Below, in pieces: positions 17,501 through 60,319 of a stretch of DNA of 64,000 bases. Positions within the stretch are counted from its first letter, which is position 1, and each line of letters starts with the position of its first letter. Below the pieces are notes generated by a model. It saw nothing but the letters and a program-made list of their open reading frames with translations, was not told the DNA's origin and searched no databases. This DNA comes from Mobula birostris (lineage: Eukaryota). Both the position numbers and the translations under genes were made by a program. The stretch lies in NCBI RefSeq assembly GCF_030028105.1, contig NC_092380.1, positions 65,655,717 to 65,719,716 of the forward strand. Reading direction: 5' to 3'.

Positions 17501-18969
17501 ACAGCAGATACAATTGCAGCAGAATTTTGGCAATAGTATTGTAAACTTATCTTTGATTTCTGATCCTCTCTTGTAGCTGGTAAATTCACAAATCTTGTAG
17601 CACCAGAAGGGTGGTAGCCAGGTATAGTATATCAAAGTATTGACTCAAGACCAGATTCCTTAGAGCAGGACCTTCAGCGACAAGCATTACACTAACATCC
17701 ATTTAGTTGGTGAAGCACTTTTTAAGTGCAATCACTATTGCAAAGTAGGCAATTAGATAGAAAATGTATCCATAAAAGTTCTAAAAGGCATTAAAATGAT
17801 CAGACTGTGGCCCAGAATAGTGAGAATGGAAAACGAAACTGCAGATACTACATATCTAAAATAAAACAGAAATAACCCCAATGGCCAAACAGGTCAGACA
17901 GCACTTATGGGAAGTGAAGAGTTAATGTTTTAGATTGAAGATCTTTCATCAGAATTGCAACTTTCAAGTCTGCAACATGAAAAGATAGATCTGTTCCTCT
18001 TCACATTGACCTACTTAGTATTTTCGGCCCTTTCTGTTTTTATATTGTTGCAGCCCAGGGCGTGGTCCGCTGTAAGCTGCCATGCTTATTGCTGATGCAC
18101 AGAATAGCTTCCATTCAGCTTATACACTTCCTTTCTTCCCAAGCATGAACAATTTGAAAGAGGCTGGCATGAACCTCATGCATGACTGGGTATTTGGCAA
18201 TGTAAATGACTGAAGTTTTGGCATGTGGATGTGTAATGAACAAGAGCCACTCACAAAACAGATGGAAAGTCTTAACCAAGCAGCTAATCAATGATCCTGG
18301 TTTAGCTGGATGACTTTCAAACCTACTTAAAAGTTAAAACTTGCTTCAAAACTTCCAACTATTAAAATAGTAGAAATCAAGTTAAAGCTATAACGCTTGA
18401 TTTTAAAATGGTTAAAACACGAACGTGAATAAATATTTGAAATGCTCAGATAGGGAATAAAGATCTCTTGCAACTGTTCATTTTCATTGCAATGAAGTGA
18501 ACATTGAATACCTGAGCTAAGTCTAACTGATGAAAGTAGCTCCAGCTGATTCCCACCGTAAGTGGATGTGACTCTCTCAATTTTTACACTTGCATACTGG
18601 ATATTATCAGCACAGTGGAAGAAATGCCAGAAAATAGCCAGAATTCAAATTTGGGACCTTTGCGTTCCAGGACATATTCACAGGAATGCAGAACTTGCTG
18701 GTACTTGTGGGAAATGTGGATTGAACTTTTCTCCACAGACAAATGGTCAACATGTGTTTTCTTCTTGTGTTTTAAGTCTTGTTTGAAGCAGTGACACCTG
18801 AGATGACCAAAGTTCAAAGTACATTTTATTATTGAAGTACATACATGTCACCATATACAACCCTGAGATTCATTTTCCCATGGGCATTCTCAGCAAATCT
18901 ATAAAATTGTAACTATATCAGGATCAATGAATGATCAATCGGAGTTCAGAAGACAGCCAACTGTGCAAA

Positions 18970-20956
18970 TACCTCAGCATAGGGAACCTTGGTTTACAAG
19001 GGATCTTGACAATCTGGTTAAGAAAAAGAGAGAGGTGTATAGCAGGTATAGGCAACAAGGAAAACATGAGGTACTTGAAGAGTATAGAAAATGTAAGAAA
19101 ATACTAAAGAAGGAAATCAGGAAGGCAAAAAGAAGACATGAGGTTGCTTTGGCAGATAATGTGAAGGTAAACTCGTAGGGTTTCTACAAGTATATTAAGA
19201 GTAAAAGGATAGTAAGGGACAAAATTGGTCCCCTAGAAGATCAAAGCCGTCATCTCTGTGTGGAGCCTCACGAGATCGGGGAGATCTTAACACAATATTT
19301 TTGCATCAGTATTTACTCAGGAAACTAGCATATTGTATATGGAAGGAAGGGAAACAAGCAGCAGTGTCATGGAACATATAGGGATTAAAAAGGAGGAGGT
19401 GCTTGCTGCCTTACAGCGAATAATGGTAGATAAATCCCCCGCGCCTGACATGATATTTCCTCGGATCTTGAGAGAGACTAGTGTAGAAATTGTGGGGGCC
19501 CTGGCAGAAATATTTAAAATGTCCTTAGCCACGGGTATGGTGCCGGATGATTGGAGGGTAGCTCATGTTGATCCGTTGTTTAAAAAAGGCTCCAAAAGTA
19601 AACCGAGTAATTACAGGCTGGTGAGTCTGACATCAGTAGTAGGCAAATCATTGGAAGGTGTTCTGAGCGATTGGATATACAAGTATTTGAATAGCCAAGG
19701 TCTGACTAAGGATAGTCAGCATGGCTTTGTGCATGGTAGATCATGTTTAACGAATCTTGTAGAGTTTTTTGAGGAGGTTACCACGAAAGTAGATGAAGGA
19801 AAGGCTGTGGATGTTGTCTACACGGACTTTAGTAAGGTCTTTGACAAGGTCCCACATGGGAGGTTAGTTCAGAAGGTTCAGACACTAGGTATCCATGGAG
19901 AGGTTGTAAACTGGATTCCAGAAGTCAGAGAGTGGTAGTGGATGATCGCTTCTCAGACTGGAGGCCTGTGACTAGTGGTGTGCCTCAAGGATCTGTGCTG
20001 GGACCATTGTTGTTTGTTGTCTATATCAATGATCTAGATAATAATGTGGTAAATTGGATCAGCAATTTTGCTGATGACACTAAGATTGGAGGCATTGTGA
20101 ACAGTGAGGAAGGCTTTCAAAGCTTGCAGAGGGATCTGGATCAACTGGAAAAATGGGCCAGAAAATGGCAGATGGAATTTAATGCAGACGAGTGTGAGGT
20201 GTTGCATTTTGGAAGGACAAATCAAGGTAGGACATACACAGTAAATGGTGGGGCACTAAGGAGTGTGGAGGAACAAAGAGATCTGGGAGTTCAGATACGT
20301 AATTCCCTGAAAGTGGCATCACAGGTAGACAGGGTTGTAAAGAAGGTTTTTGGCATCCTGGCATTCATAAATCAAAGTATTGAGTATAGGAGTTAAGATG
20401 TTATGGGGAGGTTGTATAAGACATTGGTGAGGCCAAATTTGGAGTATTGTGTATAGTTCTGGTCACCTAACTATAGGAAGGATATCAGTAAGATTGAAAG
20501 AGTGCAGAGAAAATTTACTAGGATGTTGCCGGGTCTTTAGGAGTTGAGTTACGGAGAAAGATTGAACAGGTTAGGACTTTATCCCTTGGAGTGCAGAAGA
20601 ATGAGGGGAGATTTGACAGAGGTTTACAAAATTATGAGGGGTATAGACAGAGTAAATGTGAATAGGCTCTTTCCACTTAGATGAGGAGAGATAAATACAA
20701 GAGGACATGGCTTTAGGGTGAAAGGGGAAAGGTTTAGGGGAAACTTTTTCAATCAGAGAGTGGTGGGAGTGTGGAAGAAGCTGCCATCTGACATGGTAAA
20801 TGCGGGCTCATTCTTAAGAATAAATTGGATAGGTACATGGATGGGAGAGGACTGGATGCAGGTCAATGGGACCAACGGAATAATGTTTCGGCACAGACTA
20901 GAAGGACCAAATGGCCTGTTTGCTGTGCTGTAGTGTTCTATGGTTCTATGGTTCTA
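18970..20956 (+). mobile_element. CR1 LINE, 5'-truncated, relatively young
   Basis: ORFs 19333..19938 and 19932..20396 have NYRLVSLTSVVGK, SQHGF, DFSKVFDKV, SGVPQGSVLGPLLF and FADDTK; the 3' end is a (TTCTATGG)n tail. Confidence 0.95.
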
Positions 20957-30943: not shown

Positions 30944-31365
30944 TGTGATGGATATTCGCTTCCTAAGGTAGTGGGCCTCTTTTCTTGCCAGGCTTAGCTT
31001 TCTGCACACAGCTGCTGCCACTTGTAAAGATCAAACAGTGTAAGTTAAACTTCTAACTAATATCCTTTGTTCAGCTTCTGGACACATATGGTAGCCAGTT
31101 GTTCTTAAATTGTAAATGGCAAGCAGTAATCAGCTTGGAGTTAAAACAAGCAATATCTATAGAGCAGCTTTGCAAACAAGCTCTGTATATAGCAGACACA
31201 TTGTCTATAGAAAGCAGTATGTCGGTCACTGATTCTGCCTTATTGCTGTTCAAGAAGTGCAGTATAAGACTATGGGTTATTTAATTTGGCTTGTTTCTAA
31301 ACATACAAAGTTGTTTCAGTTCAAGGAAGCTTGCAGACCTGATGGCTAGCATATCAATAACTGAT
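30944..31365 (+). mobile_element. Truncated LTR (copy A) of the putative foamy-like ERV family
   Basis: Starts TGTGATGGATATTC and aligns by eye for ~420 bp with the 5' parts of 46700-48722 and 59163-60274. Confidence 0.8.
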
Positions 31366-35727: not shown

Positions 35728-37372
35728 TTCAAGTCCAGTCAAGTCAAGTCACTTTTTATTGTCATTTCAACCATAACTGCTGGTACAGTACACTAAAATC
35801 GAGACAATGTTTTTCAGGACCATGGAGCTACATGAAACAATACAAAAACTACACTGAACTATGTAAAACAACACAGAAACTACACTAGACTACAGACCTA
35901 CCCAGGACTGCATAAAGTACACAAAACAGTGCAGGCATTACAATAAACAATAAACAAGACAATAGGCACAGTAGAGGGCAGTAGGTTGGTGTCAGTCCAG
36001 GCTCTGGGTATTGAGGAGTCTGATAGCTCGGGGGAAGAAACTGTTACATAGTCTGGACATGAAAGCCTGAATGCTTCGGTGCCTTTTGCCAGATGGCAGG
36101 AGGGAGAAGAGTTTATATGAGGGGTGCGGGGGGGGGGGGTCCTTTATAATGCTGTTTGCTTTATGGATGCAGCATGTGATGTAAATGTCTGTAATGACGG
36201 GAAGAGAAACCCTGATGATCTTCTCAGTTGACCTCACTATACGCTGCAGGGTCTTGTGATCCAAGATGGTGCAATTTCTGAAACAGGCAGTGACGCAGCT
36301 GCTCAGGATGCTCTCAAAAAAACCTCCATAGAATGTGGTGAGGATGGGGGTGGGAGATGGACTTTTCTCCGCCTTCGCAGAAAGTATAGATGCTGCTGGG
36401 CTTTCTTTGCTATGGAGCTGGTGTTGAGGGACCAGGTGAGATTCTCTGCCAGGTGAACACCAAGAAATTTGGTGCTGTTAACGATCTCTACGGAGGAGTC
36501 ATCGATGTTCAGCGGAGAGTGGTTGCTCCGTGTCCTCCTGAAGTCAACAACCATCTCTTTTGTTTTGTTCACATTCAGAGACAGGTTGTTGGCTCTGCAC
36601 CAGTCTGTTAGCCGCTGCACCTCCTCTCTGTATGCTGACTCATCGTTCTTGCTGATGAGACCCACCATGGTCGTGTCATCAGTGACCTTGATGATGTGGT
36701 TCGAGCTGTGTGTTGCAGCACAGTCGTGGGTCAGCACTGTTCACGCTGGGGTGCCCCGTGCTCAGTGTGATGGTGTTGGAGATGCTGCTTCCAATCTGGA
36801 CTGACTGAGGTCTCCCAGTCAGGAAGTCTAGGATCCAGTTGCAGTGGGAGGTGTTTAGGCCCAGTAGGCTCAACTTTCCAATCAGTTTCTGAGGAATGGT
36901 TGTGTTGAATGCTGAACTGAAGTCTATGAACAGCATTTGAACGTACGTGTCTTTTTTTTGCACAGGTGGGTTTGGGCCAAGTGGAAGGTGATGGCAATGG
37001 CGTCATCTGTTGAACGGTTGGGACGGTACACGAACTGCGGGGGGCTCAGTGAGGGGGGCAGCAGGGTCTTGATGCGCCTCATGACGAGCCTCTCGAAACA
37101 CTTCATGATGATGGATGTGAGTGCAATGGGACAGTAGTCGTTGAGGCAGGACACTGAAGACTTCTTCAGCATGGGGACGATGGTGGCGGCCTTGAAGCAC
37201 ATAGGAACGACGGCACTGCTCAGGGAGATGTTGAAGATGTCAGTGAGAATCTCAGCTAGCTGGTCTGCACATCCAAGCACTCTGCCAGGAATATTGTCTG
37301 GTCCAGCAGCCTTCCGTGGGTTGACCCTGCTCTGGGTTCTCCTCACATCGGCATCGGTAAGACACAGCACCT
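35728..37372 (-). mobile_element. Rex1/Babar LINE, 5'-truncated, young
   Basis: ORFs 36924..37370, 36679..36963 and 36303..36737 have [53 protein letters not shown] and IIKVTDDTT; (TTGAC)n tail near 35730. Confidence 0.95.
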
Positions 37373-37375
37373 AAC

Positions 37376-37856
37376 AACAGGTTTGCTTTTGGGCGATCTC
37401 TGTATCTCGCACCATCAACTGGGCATATTAAAGTGTCCTGTAGCCGACCGTTATCCTGATAATCTGGCAAACGACCGAGCTGTTGCTTTACACCAGCCTC
37501 AGTTGATAGGGCTGGATAATTGGATTGTGCCATTCTGCTACAGCCAGAGGGGTGTTCTCTGGAGCTGCTTCATTTATGCCATATCTTTTTAAGGACAGGA
37601 ATGTTTTCTCTCCCCTGCAATTTACTATGGACTGGCCAGTATCGAATATAAACCTGCAGTCAGGAGATGAGTGGTGTCTCTTGGTTTGAGGAGTATTTAC
37701 TATGCTGTTGTAACTAAGGTCTGTTCTGTTTAGCTGATTCAAGTTTGGACTCTAGAACAGTTCTGCTGAGTTTGTAAACATTTTGGGTAAATAAAACCCC
37801 TATGTTTTTCACCCTTACCTGCTCTCCCAGTTTTATGCTTACCCTGATCCTTCACA
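37376..37856 (+). mobile_element. LTR-like fragment
   Basis: TATAAA-like site near 37647, AATAAA near 37790 and a terminal ...CCTTCACA; the 5' end abuts the Rex1 truncation point; no TSD found. Confidence 0.3.
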
Positions 37857-43179: not shown

Positions 43180-45296
43180 CTTTGGACAACAAAGATTTTG
43201 CTTTCTAAATACTTTTGAGTGTATCTTAAGGATTTTAGGCTGTTGATCATGAAAATCACCATGAAATTTCCCCATCCACACCAGTTTTTTTGAAGTGTCT
43301 ATATTTGTTATTTCACTTCACAATTCAGGTCAATTAAAATGTTGCCCACAATGTAAGCTGAAAAATTTTCTATCTTGTCCAGGCATGCTGGGATATACTT
43401 AAGCAGGGTAGGTGCTGCATGGAAGGACAAGTTTTAGAAAGACTCTAAAAGCATCACGCACACATCATTCTATGCATTACGTTTGTGATCATGTTGATGC
43501 ACATAGAATATTGTGTGTACTTATAATAATGTAATTGTATTTTCAGGAGTGTTTCTGATAGGAAAATGTCTCGCCAATGTTGCAATATTCTCGATATTTT
43601 CTGCTATATTTGTGGTGAGCATGACTCCTCTAATTAAGAAAGCCTATGAGCTCCACTTTGGATGTAAAACTGGTAACTAAAACAAAGCCTGGGCTCCTCA
43701 CATTTGTTGTGCAATATGCGCTGTTGATCTTAGAGCTTGGCTCTAAGGTACTTGAAAGTCATTGTCGTTCACTGTCCTGCTGCTAATTCTGTCTGACCAG
43801 TGTGTCTGGTTTCTCCGCTAAAAACAAGAAATCTAATGAATACCTCAATCTCCCTTCAGCCATGAGACCTGTGCTGTATGATTGTATGATGCTAGTCTTT
43901 CAGTTCTGAAGCCACCAGAGACATGGAGTCTAGAGGAGGTGGATGAAGATGCCATTTTGCATGAGCCAGGAATGGAAAACAACACTGATATTAATACAGA
44001 TTTTGAACTCTTTATGTTGAGTAAGCATTATCTGATAACTCATTCTGAGTAAAATGACCTGGTCAGAGACTTCAGTTTGTCAAAGGCAAGAGCAGAATTA
44101 CTGGATTCAGGATTGCAAGGATGGAATCTGCTGAAATCAGGCACAAAAAATTCTGTGAAGGAATTCGATATTTGAGGCAAATGGTTCACAGAATAACTGA
44201 TGTCAAGATTAAAGAAGGCATTTTTGTTGATCCACAAATCGAACATTTCATCAATGACAGGCAATTCAAAGAACCTTTAGTAAGACCAAAGAAAATTGCA
44301 TAGATATTTACAAGGATATTGCCTGGCAGATTGGAAAGCATGCTTTATAAGAGTAGGTTGCATGAACTTGGCCTTTTCTCCTTAGAGCGACGGAGGATGA
44401 GAGATGACCTGATAGATGTTGTAAGATGATGAGAGACATTGATCATGTGGATAGCCAGAGGCTATTCCCATGACTGAAATGGCTAACATGAGGGGGCATA
44501 GTTTTAAGGTGCTTGGAAGGAGGTACAGGGGGATGTCATAGGTAAGTTTTTCACACAGAGAATGGTGGGTGTTTGGAACGCACTGCCAGTAATGGTGGTA
44601 GAGGTGAATGCAACAGGGTCTTTTAAGAGACTCTTAGATAGGTACATGGAGCTGAGGAAAAAAGAGGGTTATGCGGTAGGGAAATTCTAGACAGTTTTTA
44701 GTGTGAGTTACGTAGTCGGCATAACTTTGCGGGCCAAAGGGCCTGTAATGTGCTGTAGATTTCTATATTCCATGAAGGCATTCAAGGATGTTGTTGAAAA
44801 TTTTCTTGGCAACTACAGAGCATCTAACTACGTGCAGCTGGTTGACAACATGCTTCAAGCATACAAAACCATGAAGTGCAACATGCCACCAAAGATTCAT
44901 TTTCTGCATTCCCATTTAGACTTCTTCCCTGCAAATCTTGGTACTGTCAGTGACTATTATGGTGAAAGGTTTCACCAGGACATTGTGGTCATGAGCAACT
45001 GGAATCCATCAATGTTGGCTGATCTTTGTTGGACATTGTTAAGCGAGAAACCTCAGACACTGAGTACAAATGAAAATCATCAATAAGACATCTTTAGCTT
45101 AGTTGTACCACTGGAAATGTCAGCCCTATTATGCAATTAAACACAATATATTCAATAAAAGTTAATTTCTTGTTTCTCCGAATTCCTACTGATACAAGTA
45201 ATCTGAAATTATTTTTGTGTTCTGCTTCAAGTGGTCTATCATAACCGAAAAAAATTCTGAGGAAGCAACATTTTCAAAGAAATTTTCTGTCCAGTA
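43180..45296 (+). mobile_element. Chapaev3-like (CMC) DNA transposon, internally deleted transposase pseudogene
   Basis: From ATG 43566: MSRQCCNILDIFCYICGE..KKAYELHFGCKTGN*NKAWAPHICC; later KIKEGIFVDPQI and AFKDVVENFLGN..KIHFLHSHLDFFPANLGTVSDYYGERFHQDI; degenerate TIRs TGGACAACAAA / TTTTCTGTCCAGT. Family assignment is from remembered motifs. Confidence 0.7.
44305..44772 (+). mobile_element. CR1 3' fragment inserted in the transposase
   Basis: LGLFSLERRRMRDDLI and FFTQRMVGVWNALP motifs plus CR1 3' UTR; splits transposase KIA/KAFKDVV. Confidence 0.85.
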
Positions 45297-46874
45297 TTAT
45301 CAGCTTTTGACATCAGTTTTCAGCAACTAAATGGGATGAAGCTTTATATAGTGTCAAAAACTGACTCCTTCAACCTTTTAGGTCATTTCATAGTGTGGGA
45401 TTTAGGAATACAGAAATGTTTTATGGCATTACTTAAATAAACATTACTTCAGTTTCAAAAATGTCAACAGACTTAAAGATGGCATTTCAGTCTGAATGCC
45501 TGGAGCATCCCCATTTTTCTAATGCTTTGGCAGGATTGATGTGCAACAGGGCTATGCTGTCTATGATTGAATCACCTTCAACCTGCAAGATGCCCTTGGG
45601 AGATTCACAAAGAATAACTGCAATCATTCTTGCTACTTCTTGGAACCGGCAGGTGGTTTACCACTCACTGCTTATTTGTTTAATGATTTTTTTATAAATG
45701 CATTGGTTTCTGACAAAAATCTTCAGCAGTTTTTCATCTCTCTACATCTTCAAAAGCATATTCAGAACCGACTGCTTGGCTTCACCTTCAGACACTTCTC
45801 TAATCCTTCTCCAGAACACTGTGGATTGTTGTATTTATCGCTTTGTGAATGTTATAGGGTTACTTTGCTGCATTAACATCAGTAGGTACTTGCAATTTAT
45901 GTGTATTCTTGACCATAACCCACAATATGCGTGTGCCAATTTCAGAATTATTAAATTTCAGTAGAAACTTGGTGCCAAATTAGCATCACCATTGATGCAT
46001 TAACCTAAATAATGCAGCATCGTTTTTCTTGATTTATATGCTGCCTTCAGCTACTTGTGAATACATAATTAAGAAAGCTTTGAACAATGTGCCAAGTGTA
46101 ATGGTGATAGACTACATCCAATTCTGCAATTTTAATCTAAACAATGCAATGAATGAAACTATGCTCTTAGCAATAATTAATTAAGTAATTATTACCTCTC
46201 CCCTTTTACAATTAGCTGGTACCCTTTGGTAAAGCCTGTTTGGTATTGATGCCACAGCTTGAAATAAAATCTACTCTAGATTTGTGAGCAACACATACAA
46301 AATGCTGGAGGAACTCAGCAGGTCAGGCAGCATCTATGGAGTGGAATAAATAACAAACAATTCAGTGAGACCTGATACACATCAGGGGACTGCTTTGTCA
46401 AGTACCTTTGTTCTGTCAACGTCAAAAGGCAGATCTCCCAGCGGCTACCAATTTCAATTCAATCTCCCATTCATTTTATTTAATTAACACATGTACATTG
46501 AAACATACAGCGAAATGCATTGTTTGCGTTATAAGCCAACAACCTAAAAATGTGCTGTGCCACCTCGAAGTGTCACCACACGTTTCAGCACCAACATAGC
46601 ATGCCCACAATGTTCAGCAGAACAACGCAAGCAACAGCAACAACAAAAACAACAAAATAAGATAATTTCCCACCCACCCTTGCACACAGCCACAGCTTCT
46701 GTGATGGGCATTCACTTCCTCGCCTCCTTCTCATGTTTTGCAAGGCTCACATTCTAATCACAGCAGCTGCCACTTGTAAGATCACAAATAATTGTAAGTA
46801 TACTTCCATCTAACAGTTGGTTGATTCTTGTCGTAAATGGAGTCAGCCTTCAGTTCTTAAGCTGTAAACGGTAA

Positions 46875-47126
46875 GCAGTAATCAGTGTGAAGTTAAAACA
46901 AGTACCATCTATAGAACAGCTTTGTAAACAAAGTCTATACAGAGCAGTCACTCTATCAGTAAGAAGTAGCTCACTGCACTTGGTTAATTGCTGCTTGAGA
47001 GTGCAGTATAAGACAGTGGATTGTATAATTTGCTTGTTTCAAATAGACAAGCTGACCCCAAGTTGCTTAGTTCAAGGAAGTTTGCGGATCAAATGGATAA
47101 TATCATTTACCATATCAAATAACTGA
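46875..47126 (+). pseudogene. Decayed U3-embedded ORF (candidate retroviral accessory gene)
   Basis: The same frame is open in copies A (31099..31284) and B (46887..47126); in a 32-codon alignment 10 of 19 differing codons are synonymous. Confidence 0.5.
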
Positions 47127-47551
47127 TGCATTTTTATTTGGTAGGTTTATGTACTCAAGGAAAATAGCTTTACAGCAGTAATTGTGACTTGTGAACTATG
47201 TCTCCAAGATGCTTTTAGTCTGTTTATGTAAAAAGGGCATCTGAAGAAATATCATATACAGATGAAGTCACCAAAGTGGTAGAAAAAGTGCATAAAATAT
47301 AGAGAGTAGTTCAGGCTTATTAGGAGTGGTTGAAGAACATCAGGAAGAATGACAGGAAGATGGGCTGATTAGAGTCCATTCCTTTGGCTTCGATCTCTGT
47401 GATGGGTAATTTGTTTGTCTGCATCTTTGGTATGCCTTTTTGGTTTATAAGAATTGTACATGTTTTGGAAATCCTTTGTAGTTTACAAATGGTTAGTAAT
47501 TTAGAAATGTTTTGAAAGAAAGAAATCCTCTGTGAGTTTCAAATATGTTTT

Positions 47552-48423
47552 AGATAGATAGATACTTCATTGATCCCAAAGGAAATTACAGTGGTCACAG
47601 CAGCATTACAAGTGCACAGATATACAAATATTAGAAGAGGAGTAAGAAAGAATAAAAGATAAGTTACCTCAAACAGTCTTAACAGCAGGGGTTCATTACT
47701 TCCCCAGCTATAGATTGACTCATTATAGATCCTAATGGCCAAGGGTAAGAATGACCTCATATAGCGCTCTTCGGAGCAATGCAGTTATCTTTGTCTATTA
47801 CTAAAAGTGCTCCTCTGTTCAGCCAAGTTGGCATGCAGAGAGTGAGAAACATTGTCCAGAATTGCCAGGATTTTCCATTATAGGAGTCAAACTGGACACA
47901 TTGGAGGCTGTGGTAAATCAAAGCCTCCACTGTGTCCAGTTTGACTCCTATAACAGAACCAGTTTTTCTAATCAGTTTATAGAACCTGTTGGCATCACCC
48001 GTGTTGATGCCATTGCTCCAGCACACCACTGCATAGAAGATTGTACTGGTGACAACAGAGTGGTAGGACATTTGAAGGAAAGGCCTGCATACTCCAAAGG
48101 AACTCAGTCTCCTCAGGAAGTAAAGGAGACTCTGGCCCTTGTACACAGCCTCTGTGTTGAAGCTCCATTCAAGCCTGTCATCCAGCTGAACCCCCAGGTA
48201 TTTGTAGGTCTTCACCACATCGATATCCTCACCATAAACAGTAACAGGGAGCAGTGTAGGCTTAGAGTGAGCTGCAGATGATTCAGCTTGCACCATTTGA
48301 CAAAGTCCTCCACTCGGGCACGGTATTCATCCTCCTGAACTTCCTTTATACACTCACCTATTGCTAAGTCGTCAGAGAATTTCTGCAGATGACATGACTC
48401 AGTGTTGTATCTAAAGTTGGAGG
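47552..48423 (-). mobile_element. Rex1/Babar LINE 3' fragment inserted in LTR copy B
   Basis: LQKFSDD, YKYLGVQLDDRLEW and LYFLRRLSSF (ORF 47757..48296); (CTAT)n tail; absent from LTR copy C. Confidence 0.9.
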
Positions 48424-48724
48424 TAAGAAAGTTGTTTGGATTTAAATGTGCATCACTGAAAATAAATGAACTGTAGTTTAAACTACCTTGTTAGCTAGAA
48501 GCATCTTCTCTTTGGTAGGGAGCACACTGCTCAAATAGTGGGTACTGACGGCCAAAACCCACAGTGGAGAATAAACATGGAAGTGAACTAGTTTTTGAAG
48601 ACTAGGTAGTCACAGTACAACCTACCTTAAGTCAGGCTACTTGTGGCTATTCATATCCGATAGGGCTTAAGGCATTTACTTCCGTTTAGAACTTTGTGGT
48701 CAGGAAACCCAATACCATCACATT

Positions 48725-48742
48725 TGGTGCCCAGCGTGGTTA
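48725..48742 (+). promoter_or_regulatory. Primer-binding site, tRNA-Lys(CUU; Lys1,2) type
   Basis: TGGTGCCCAGCGTGG lies 2 nt after the LTR-terminal CA; 13 of the first 15 nt match TGGCGCCCAACGTGG and both mismatches would be G-U wobbles. Confidence 0.8.
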
Positions 48743-48885
48743 TGTTATACAAGAAGTATTACTTTAGAACCAATTATTCTTTAGCAGTAGTCCAATTCAG
48801 AGTGTGTTTGACAAGTGCTATGCCCACCCCCCACCTAGTACTATAAAATGGCCAACATCTTGGTTTCTAGTAGCTGTGCAGGCAA

Positions 48886-49398
48886 ATGAGTGTGTTAATA
48901 GTACATCAGAATTATGAGGTAATACCCCAGCTGCTTCTCAGAATGAACATTGATGAATACTTTAGAGATATTAATGAAGCCTGGAGAACAAATTCTTGGG
49001 AACATGCACTAGAATTACTAAAAAGATTGACTATAGCCAGTAAAAAAAAAGACGGGGACAGGTTCCTATACTGGGAGCCACTGCAGCTTCCCCAGTACAA
49101 ACTTCTCATCAGGCTTTTGGATCTTTTGACTATTCAGAGCTTGCAGGCAGTATACACTACACCTCCAGCTTATGCTGAAGGAATCTTGAAGAGGCTACTT
49201 CAGACTACTGGGAGCTTAAAGGCCTTCTGGCCCAGGCATACTCCTCAACATATTCAGCAATTCTTATTAATCTTAGTTACCACTTCCACTAAAGTATGGA
49301 AATTCATATCAGATGCAGTATATGTGTGGATTTATAAACAAATTAATGGTGGAGAGGTATGTGGAGGACTTGGTATTGCGTTAAGTAAAATAGTCTAA
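48886..49398 (+). pseudogene. ORF in the gag position of the truncated provirus
   Basis: 170-codon ATG-initiated ORF starting 164 nt after the LTR; no recognisable motif, so the call is positional only. Confidence 0.45.
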
Positions 49399-49707
49399 AG
49401 CCAGGGCTTAATAACAACTTGTAAGATCAGAGAACAAATGGTGAGGGTGGACTGAGACCAAACTCATTCTAACTCTTTCTTTTTATCCCAGGAAAAGTCT
49501 CTGTACTACGTGCAGAATAGCCATTAAACAAGACACCCAGTACATGAATGATTTCAAGTTTTTGAAGAGATCCTGCACACCCACATAGTGGTAGAAGGAT
49601 TACTGCTTGTTCCCACACAAAGACAACAAGGTTTCAGCACAGGGCCCTCCCCTTTTCCCGCATATATTTCCTGTTAGATTTTATTACAAATTAGATTCCT
49701 TATTCTT

Positions 49708-57428: not shown

Positions 57429-59162
57429 TATTATCAATCGTTTCCAATTGTTGCAAACTGAAGTGGTGATACTGCATTACAATGGGACTAGTCCCATCGG
57501 GTCTTTCACACGTTGCAACGAGACTATATTGCTTTCTTCCAATTTTGCAGACATTTCAGGTGATCTGTTTTGAAGTTATTATGACATGCCATGAATCACA
57601 AAGGGTACAATCTGAGTTCTTTATAATAGTTCTGAGATAACACAAATTGTGTTGTTTTGGAACTGACCCAATGCACCTTCCTTGGTATTTTTCACTTAGC
57701 TTTTCATTTTCCTTTACAGTATTAATAATCACCATTTATTCCTCAACAGAAAGATTTTTTTAATTTCAACTATTCTCCTGTGGTCTATCTCATTGTGAGT
57801 CAGAGCAATTGGACTTTATGTCATTTTTAAAACTTGGAATGTTTACACAAACAAGGATAACACAAAGGAAGTGAACTGCTTTGACCCAATGAGCAAATTC
57901 AGTTCTTATTAAATTATAATGTGGGACTTCTCTGGCATTTTGGGAAATAAATTTCACAAGTCTATTAATCTGTCAAGACTGTAAGTGAATGGATTTAACC
58001 TCCAACTTGATGGAATGAATGGCCTCCTTTTATGTCCCTGGGAAATATTAAAATAAATAATCACAACTAGAGTTACATGTTCTATGGTTTAGCAGCTGCA
58101 ACTAATGGCTGCCTGGACTGGAGGCATTTCTGTGTTTTGGCAATTTTGGGAATAGTTCTAGACTTTGGCAGCACCAGGAATCACCTTGATATTTCAGCAT
58201 AATGTTTCCAAGGGGTTGGATGACTAACTGCAGAGTTACTTCAACCTTACTATAAATGAAATTTGAATTTGGCTGTGCTATCAAGTAGAAATTTAGGTTT
58301 GCCAAATGTGGGGTGGAACTATGAGAAGATCTGGATCACTGGTGAAATTCCTGATATAAGCCAGCAATGAATGGAGATGCAGGGCATAATGTCATTGGGG
58401 AGGGGTAGTGAGAATGGCTTCAGGGATTGTAATAGTGATTTAAAAGTTTCTGACACTTCTCTCCCTCATATGGCACCAAAAATAGCTTTAATTTCTGATC
58501 AGCAAAATGTAACAGCCAGAAAAGTAGAAATTAAAATAACTGTAATTAGATTAAAGGAGAGGAATAGGAACTCAAATTAAAATGAGAAAGTGCTTTATTC
58601 CTTTGTGCAACCTTCCAATTGCTTTGTGTTTAACTTTTTATTTGAAAATTTAAAACTTTGCAACTCTTTGGATGGAGGTGTGAAGTGAGTTGGTGGAGGT
58701 GTTGAGGAGGCGGTGAGCTGACAGGAAGGCTTTCAAGAACACTGTTTTGGCACCCCTAACATCTTCACAAATTCCTAGCACACTAGGTTCTGGTGGTATT
58801 CTGACAGAAAAGAATTTGGATATTCATTTTTTAATATACATTTTCTGGGCAACAGGAGGGTGACCTGTTAGCAGCAGTTAGCAAAAATAGACCAATACAG
58901 CTCCAGGTCCTCCACAGGTTACAATAGGGTTCCTTTCCTGAGAACTGCTTGTAACCTAAGCAATCACAGGTGAAAAATACTTAACAACAACATAGGCCAA
59001 CCATGTACTGTTAACTCAACCAGATATTGCGGTGAACTGAGTTCCCACTCAACAAAAAAATGACTACAACCTATAGCAGCCGACGAATTCATCTTGCCAG
59101 TTTTCTGAACACTTGTACGTATGTATGGGCTGTACATTAGTCATAAGCTGAAAAGGAGCTGT

Positions 59163-60274
59163 TGTGATGGATATTCACTGTCCAGGACAGGGTGGGTGGG
59201 GGGGGGGGTAGGTGGTGGCTTTCTTTTTTTTGCCAAGCTCCACTTTCTAACACAACAGCTGAAACTTCCAGAGATCAAAGTGTTGGTTTTGAGTAAGATA
59301 GAGTTCCAATCAATATAGCAACGATAATCAGCCTGAAACTAAAAGGAGAGCTTTGCAAACAAACTGTCTATAGAACATAGGACGCGAGCCCACTGCATCT
59401 GAGCTGATTTCTGGAGAGCTGCAGTGTAAGCCAATAGGTTTTTTAATTAGGCTTGTTTCAAACCAGACAACATAGCTAATTTATTTAGTTTAAGTAAGCC
59501 TACAGACCAGATTGATACTATCACTTAGCACATCAAATAGCTGATTTATTAACAGTTGTAAGGATGTGTGCTCAGAGAGTCAGCTTCACAGCATTAATTG
59601 TGGTAATGGGGAACTCTGTCACCAGAAATTTTTAGACCGTTTGTGCAAAAAAGGTTTCTGAAAACATATCATATACATCTGAAGTCATCCAAGTAGCAGG
59701 AGAACAATAGAGGAGTAGAGGGAAGTCAGACTTATTAGGAACGGTTAAGAAACAGCAAGAAGAATGACTGAAAGCCTGGGTGATTAGAATGCTTTCTTAT
59801 GCTTTCAATTTCTGTGATGGATGATTCACTCATCTGCAACTCATTGGTATGTTGATTTGGTTTATAGGAATTGTACTTGTGTTCTGGAAAATCCTTTATG
59901 TTTTAGAAAACATTCGTAATTTGGAAATATTTTTGAAGATAGAAATCCTCTGTGAGTTTTAAATGTATTTTTAAGAATTTTGTTTGGATTTAAATGTGTA
60001 TCACTAAAATTAAATTAACTGTATTTAAAGTACATTGTTAGATGGAAGTATCTCCTCCTTGGTAGATAGTGAGGACCCATTGCTCAAATAGTGGGTATTG
60101 GCAGCTAAACTCACTATGGAGGTTAAACAGGCAAGTGAACTAGTTTTTGAAGTGTAGGTGGTTACAGTATAACCTCCCTTTACTGAGGGTACCCATAGCT
60201 ATCTATATCAGATAGGACATAAGGTCTTCACTTGAGTTTAGAACTTCACAGTCAGCAAACCCAAAGCCATCACA
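59163..60274 (+). mobile_element. Solo LTR (copy C, 1112 bp) of the putative foamy-like ERV
   Basis: Perfect 8-bp inverted termini TGTGATGG/CCATCACA; perfect 4-bp TSD CTGT at 59159-59162 and 60275-60278; homologous to copies A and B. Confidence 0.92.
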
Positions 60275-60319
60275 CTGTAATGCCAAATAGTGACAATAAG
60301 TCTTGTCCACATTTCACAG

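Follow-up and report, generated by a model that had tools for sequence, protein, structure and literature searches.

Separate expression of Pol is among the features that distinguish foamy viruses from every other kind of retrovirus. Spumaviruses start pol separately and in another frame, and the element XtERV-S has an in-frame stop, as described in the available part of PMC8278194. Foamy-like endogenous retroviruses (ERVs) have been published from cartilaginous fish before. According to the available text of PMC5512871, the shark elements lie outside the clade of tetrapod and lobe-finned fish elements, and the Gag and Env of fish elements cannot be aligned with those of mammals; in that of PMC10699275, the catshark element groups with the teleost foamy-like ERVs, and the Gag domain was not found in this 2023 set. 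The teleost elements of PMC5210030, in the part of that paper at hand, have 4-nucleotide target-site duplications (TSDs) and primer-binding sites (PBSs) for tRNA-Lys, while their gag and env are without detectable homology and their gag and pol are transcribed independently. We report here on a retroviral family of the ray Mobula birostris, met through a truncated provirus in a 64-kb stretch of contig NC_092380.1 (positions 65,655,717 to 65,719,716 of the forward strand; hereafter 'the window', meaning the whole 64,000 nucleotides). This family differs from the known foamy viruses by an in-frame gag-TAG-pol arrangement.

With the mammalian foamy viruses (prototype and simian foamy virus, PFV/SFV, and feline foamy virus, FFV) the family shares near-identical ends of the long terminal repeat (LTR), a Lys1,2 PBS, a 4-bp TSD and a long LTR, as well as the Gag central domain, a YVDD-type reverse transcriptase (RT), the integrase (IN) and homology in Env; its Gag may also share an LRPR-type motif and a p3-like site. 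It differs from them by its DTG protease, by an Env that we estimate to be shorter (about 750 codons), by a Pol identity of about 30 to 40%, and by its coding layout: the mammalian viruses have overlapping gag and pol frames with an AUG for pol, whereas the family has one frame split by TAG. In this last respect it is like the gamma- and epsilonretroviruses and XtERV-S, where an in-frame stop between gag and pol is read through (PMC8278194, in the part available). All of these belong to other RT clades and have other Gag and Env types; XtERV-S, as presented there, is ERV-L/S-like, with a TGA stop and a class I env. In the literature at hand, mostly open papers taken without their supplements, we found neither a report of an in-frame stop between gag and pol in a foamy-clade element nor an elasmobranch element grouped with the tetrapod foamy viruses; the annotated genomes are in the supplements of PMC5512871 and PMC10699275 and might affect this negative.

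The 4.0-Gb genome was searched with several parts of the element, 40 candidates being scored per query. Candidates numbered 4967 for the LTR, 1926 for the LTR plus gag, 1258 for IN/env, 319 for RNase H (RH) plus IN, and 195 for pro-RT. The family has left hundreds to thousands of remnants, and with 4967 LTR and 1926 LTR plus gag candidates the resemblance seen in the window is not due to chance. Retrieval of 75 other copies gave, with the window included, 76 mapped stretches, comprising 18 that lack RT (class A), 20 that lack gag (class B), 5 with gag and the RT core, and others that were otherwise truncated. Fuller copies, for which a genome search had been proposed together with the original prediction, were recovered, and they show a provirus of foamy type. 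Their layout, drawn from module maps, is LTR-PBS-gag-pro-RT-RH-IN-env, followed by about 1.5 to 2 kb, a polypurine tract and the 3' LTR; no accessory open reading frame (ORF) of the tas/bel2 kind was resolved in these 1.5 to 2 kb. At 30 LTR loci, the TSD was exactly 4 bp in 8 cases and 4 bp with one mismatch in 7, and an exact TSD of 5 or 6 bp was never found (0/30).

The family is almost certainly a foamy-type ERV, as had been predicted from the window sequence: RT, IN, Gag and Env of the fuller copies all point to foamy viruses. One natural RT frame of 330 amino acids (aa) had its best PDB matches with foamy Pol (E = 8e-44) and PFV (4e-36), compared with 4e-11 for cauliflower mosaic virus and 8e-7 for Ty3. 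The thumb of RT, for which word-based protein searches returned no matches, scored 1e-13 with foamy viruses, compared with 5e-3 for murine leukaemia virus and 0.66 for Ty3, and an integrase piece matched PFV integrase (5e-11). The Pfam domain Gag_FV_central was matched by 10 of 14 Gag pieces, the best of them (6e-8) falling just below the curated cut-off. In profile alignments, the family Gag matched salamander foamy Gag (hhalign, probability 95.6, E = 1e-8) and mammalian foamy Gag (1e-7); the LRPR-type motif and the VN/VI site were recognized by eye in decayed translations. Three Env pieces were collinear with positions 138-206, 353-402 and 910-944 of foamy Env, and each outscored 60 of 60 column shuffles as well as foamy Gag and Pol controls. 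The Env and mammalian-Gag profile comparisons took in an alignment in which 1 of 7 rows was in the wrong frame. The structure predicted by AlphaFold for a Gag piece was poor (pLDDT 50), so that the fold search was uninformative.

Some results speak against this assignment or were negative. Taken singly, the Env matches are weak (6e-4 to 5e-3), and only 1 of 9 pieces matched the Pfam Env family PF03408 (E = 0.003), the other Pfam searches giving none. When pieces or profiles of Env and Gag were compared with the PDB, the foamy structures were missed, and the protease piece, a single decayed one, matched no Pfam family. A genome search with PF03408, under a strict filter and with no positive control, returned nothing, and a hidden Markov model of six mammalian Env proteins gave sub-significant matches only. 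The protease active site itself reads DTG in the family, against DSG in foamy viruses. As for a lokiretrovirus affiliation, the homology of Gag and Env to those of foamy viruses argues against it.

References for the Pol phylogeny were taken from a profile search of 1.8 billion proteins, 30 being looked up by name. Trees were built on RT plus the connection domain (439 to 442 columns) under LG+G4 and mixture models; the mixture tree left out 10 rows (five outgroups, Stegastes, one unnamed, two of our own pieces and one Pleurodeles) and gained two simian Pol rows. The family was sister to the Scyliorhinus torazame protein GCB66461 (92/90; 84/88), and the Gag-Pol protein P0003 joined the pair next (96/93; 98/96). 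These three lay inside a clade with FFV, SFV and Pleurodeles (97/94 with LG+G4, 94/98 with the mixture model), while the Callorhinchus protein, a second Scyliorhinus protein and the teleost proteins fell outside the family's clade. A single clade of all shark rows was rejected (p = 2.6e-6 in the approximately unbiased (AU) test). It is likely that the known foamy-like ERVs of fish are more distant from the tetrapod foamy viruses than this lineage is. This placement has to be weighed against two points: a position outside the tetrapod foamy clade was not rejected (p-AU = 0.056), and the trees were built without coelacanth, reptile, bird, frog, lokiretrovirus or orthoretrovirus rows.

The salamander foamy ERVs (NviFLERV; Pleurodeles waltl) share with the family an alignable Gag central domain and the same Pol clade; unlike that of the family, their Pol as annotated has its own Met and a DSA-type site, and it sits on a long separate branch. 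CmiFLERV (PMC5512871) and ERV-Spuma.0-Sca (PMC10699275) are also foamy-like ERVs of cartilaginous fish, but are placed, in the available text of these papers, outside the clade of tetrapods and coelacanth or with teleosts; they are set apart here by their descriptions, not by sequences. The two nearest proteins in the Pol tree are not described as viral in their records. GCB66461 (P0072), closest to the family among named proteins, carries the annotation of a PR-domain protein, but the 400 residues at its N-terminus are foamy RT. P0003, from a Logan record, is an apparently intact one-frame Gag-Pro-Pol of 1687 aa on an 11-kb contig, perhaps from an ERV of very recent origin or from an exogenous virus; no DNA of its relatives was found in metagenomes. 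It shares the DTG protease and the fusion of Gag to Pol with the family, to which it is about 30 to 40% identical, and has Gln in place of the TAG.

To locate the junction between gag and pol, stops were counted per column over 91 aligned pieces spanning the leader to the protease. Only 4 triplets with at least 40% stops were found in the gag-pro frame, compared with 40 and 49 in the two other frames. One of these is located upstream of gag, and at two others the CGA/TGA/CAA pattern of decay is seen. At the last of the four, 14 of 21 copies read TAG and the remainder CAG (2), GAG (2), TAT (2) or TTG (1); this share of TAG is the highest among 572 triplets, the next being 0.24. The catalytic Asp of the protease follows 26 codons past the TAG, the distance being exactly 78 nucleotides in 9 of 16 copies. 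Within 30 codons on either side there is no in-frame ATG. In one single copy, the gag tail, the stop and the protease are all found in the same frame. The p3-like VN/VI site precedes the TAG by 21 residues, and in a primate foamy virus it precedes the end of Gag by 27. The TAG is very probably the natural stop of gag. All six foamy contigs have a pol that starts with its own Met and overlaps gag out of frame; this hallmark, an AUG-started Pol in a different frame, is absent from the family. Because gag and pol lie in the same frame, separated by TAG and with no in-frame AUG, we class the family as a foamy-like ERV within the foamy clade and not as a canonical member.

Judging from this arrangement, Pol would rather probably be made by amber read-through, as in the gamma- and epsilonretroviruses and XtERV-S. 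Three observations count against such a mechanism. No stable structure was detected after the TAG in 11 copies, which are about 13% decayed (z from -1.6 to +0.9 relative to shuffles); the TAG/G boundary is also a possible splice acceptor; and P0003, continuous through this point, is known as a protein whose DNA was unseen, so that the Gln could stand for a real codon or for a stop that the gene caller read as Gln.

The first alternative is that Pol was translated from a spliced mRNA in which an exon with an upstream AUG was joined to the AG of the TAG, or to one nearby. The match of TAG/G to the core of a 3' splice site and the lack of a read-through structure downstream agree with it, as does the location of the stop, which is about where foamy Pol begins (the Asp is at +26, compared with residue 22 to 25 after the Met in foamy Pol). 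Moreover, the known foamy viruses all splice pol, which is established knowledge and is also stated in the available part of PMC8278194. Yet the sequence leading up to the AG is rich in purines and lacks a clear pyrimidine tract, this AG is not the end point of any deletion junction listed for the 76 stretches, and the sister protein P0003 is a continuous Gag-Pol. We regard this alternative as unlikely. Rather less likely again is a second one, in which the virus had an uninterrupted Gag-Pol, Gag being made from a spliced RNA, and the TAG was a nonsense change in a founder whose defective RNA was amplified in trans. P0003, as annotated, has no stop, and the RT-less class could be a retro-copy of the Gag RNA: its first junction removes a segment of about 650 nucleotides that has GT...AG ends and contains a branch-like motif, and this removal would close the frame shortly past the start of the protease. 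That junction, however, also carries a 3-nucleotide microhomology, and the two other shared junctions lie on microhomologies of 8 to 9 nucleotides and have no GT-AG ends. In addition, copies that retain gag together with the RT core have the TAG just as RT-less ones do, and the p3-like site suits a Gag that ends at the TAG.

Taken as a whole, the best explanation, and one that we consider moderately probable, is that the window holds a dead copy of a foamy-type ERV with a gag-TAG-pro read-through. An enveloped virus would have colonized the germ line of an ancestral elasmobranch. Its enzymes would have been produced by read-through of the TAG, as part of a Gag-Pol fusion, and not from a separate spliced pol mRNA. 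The family may then have spread in a single burst, in which gag-less and RT-less RNAs, likely formed by template switching at microhomologies, would have been copied in trans by complete proviruses. Most copies would later have collapsed to solo LTRs and decayed neutrally.

Of 40 copies chosen by their shared RH-IN region, 11 were of class A and 7 of class B, 3 kept both gag and the RT core, and 19 were others. The tree of 40 copies is star-like. Class A is defined by two shared deletions, one running from the protease active site into RT and the other across the RT catalytic motif, and was clustered on the tree (8 changes compared with 13 when shuffled, 2/500). A star tree with shared breakpoints agrees with a single burst during which defective RNAs were being copied in trans. 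Against this, neither deletion class forms a clade (8 and 11 changes), and the two are told apart by only 5 of 1859 columns. Splicing was rejected as the origin of two of the three shared junctions, those with the longer microhomologies. One copy (L069, C7:30042280-30052279) has the second class A junction without the first, which hints at an order of deletions or at recombination. An extra base just after the gag ATG was observed in 18 of 39 copies across the classes, including 5 of 10 RT-less ones, and in only 1 of 6 in a group made up mostly of gag-plus-protease copies. A scheme in which Gag-only and Pol-only copies complement one another was given less weight on account of this extra base, of the gag-less junction, which deletes the N-terminus of the protease, and of the classes not being clades.

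Within 13 LTR pairs, the Kimura two-parameter distance was 0.18 to 0.29 (median 0.23). The age derived from it is set entirely by the assumed rate, being about 50 My at 2.2e-9 but more than 200 My at 0.5e-9, the latter rate being taken from the part of PMC10699275 available to us, and both estimates are inflated by CpG decay. The junction between host DNA and LTR at the window insertion is bridged by contigs of three other organisms (4/504, 8/183 and 14/196 differences) in a comparison that covered 4 of 24 listed sequencing runs; the insertion therefore predates the splits of these organisms. All family copies whose translations were read have stops and frameshifts.

Tentatively, and with somewhat less than even confidence, we propose that elasmobranchs carry a second, undescribed foamy lineage, sister to the tetrapod foamy viruses and with foamy Gag and Env still recognizable, that may express Pol by Gag-amber-Pol read-through in the manner of orthoretroviruses. 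If this is true, a Gag-independent Pol is not universal among spumaretroviruses, and it was either gained after the split or lost in the lineage of this family. A one-frame amber lineage within the foamy clade would be a natural comparison for changes in Pol expression, packaging and protease type, and a cartilaginous-fish branch beside the tetrapod foamy viruses bears on whether the lineage has diverged along with its hosts since the root of the jawed vertebrates or has moved between classes. Taken alone, the window copy is decayed DNA of an ordinary kind, whose value lies in giving entry to the family and in being a species-shared insertion for dating.

The features of the family in the window are listed in the table below. 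The long LTR, the TT, the Lys1,2-type PBS and the 170-codon frame of the original prediction are all present where it had put them. The 5' LTR starts with TGTGATGG at 46700 and finishes with CCATCACA at 48722; TT follows directly, and then TGGTGCCCAGCGTGG at 48725-48739. The foamy LTR ends and PBS quoted with the prediction proved right in six natural foamy-virus contigs: primate foamy contigs begin with TGTGGTGG and finish with CCATGACA-AT-PBS, 7 of 8 bases being alike at each end. Compared by eye, the PBS agrees with the foamy Lys1,2 PBS at 13 of the first 15 positions and at 13 of 18 overall; positions 16 to 18 are TCA-like in the family copies and GGC in the mammalian Lys1,2 PBS, so that the match is one of 15 nucleotides. 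These TCA-like bases may reflect a host tRNA variant. The LTR, predicted at about 1.1 kb, measures about 1.15 kb without the insert that interrupts it, of which the prediction made no mention. The sister solo LTR is flanked by CTGT on both sides, in line with the 4-bp TSD that had been noted, and is 72 to 78% identical to the 5' LTR. As had also been remarked, the window holds no recognizable pol or env: viral sequence of the provirus ends at about 49658, and no pol, env or other internal part of the family lies elsewhere in the window. The window copy is a decayed, dead, 3'-truncated fragment.

Table. Positions of the foamy-like family's features in the 64-kb window
Feature	Position	Strand	Remark
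Third LTR fragment	30945..31356	+	5' part only; start approximate
5' LTR of the 3'-truncated provirus	46700..48722	+	about 1.15 kb without the insert
Secondary insert in the 5' LTR (3' LINE fragment)	47552..48423	-	872 bp; alignment gap
Internal fragment, leader and 5' half of gag	48723..49658	+	provirus cut off here
PBS, tRNA-Lys1,2 type	48725..48739	+	13/15 bases as in the foamy PBS
Family gag ATG	48848..48850	+	170-codon frame starts elsewhere
Open frame, decayed gag	48886..49398	+	170 codons plus stop; covers part of the foamy-type central (capsid-like) domain
Solo LTR, same family	59163..60274	+	4-bp TSD 59159-59162 / 60275-60278

The 170-codon frame, predicted as an ORF in gag position, is indeed derived from gag, but it misses the ATG of the family gag, bridges a deletion of about 300 bp (reference 254 to 557; window 48964/48978) and holds two stretches that are out of frame relative to the family gag. 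It is a deletion-joined, partly out-of-frame piece of gag, and not an intact gene. Searches with this ORF brought no match in Pfam, PDB or the ESM Atlas (best Atlas value 0.87, a lead only). That the frame might be a co-opted gene under selection seems to us very improbable. The stop-free run at this place is the longest among 14 gag copies (174 codons, compared with 72 to 163 in the 13 other decayed copies), and the insertion is common to several organisms. Runs of 72 to 163 codons in the other decayed copies mean, however, that the length is no sign of selection; besides the deletion, the shifted frame and the missed ATG, contigs of other organisms have insertions or deletions in the region of the frame, orthology not being established for each contig.

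Membership in Gypsy/Metaviridae (an Osvaldo/Gmr1-like element with a Lys PBS), the alternative that had accompanied the original prediction with the expectation of a Gypsy RT and no env, was ruled out and has a negligible chance of being right: Gypsy proteins with several RT copies do rank high in the profile search, and the protease is DTG, not the foamy DSG, but these ranks are sums over 2 to 3 domains and per domain foamy viruses are far ahead, the fuller copies combine a foamy-type RT in RT-RH-IN order with foamy Gag and Env homology, and in the Pol tree the family is nested in the foamy clade, split from the outgroups at 100/99.

With the solo LTR and the third fragment, three insertions of this family are found in the window within 30 kb. 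The LINE fragment inside the 5' LTR, which we take to be from a high-copy, Rex1/Babar-like element, had a weak match with Pfam ALKBH8_N (E = 3.5e-4) and very high depth in the comparison with other organisms. It contains an inverted repeat at 47873-47958 (arms of 40 nucleotides, 90% identity, 6-nucleotide loop). Elsewhere in the window, positions 18867-20396, 36000-37600 and 44691-45086 hold decayed frames, presumably of LINEs (CR1-like and Rex/Babar-like) and, in one case, of a transposase.

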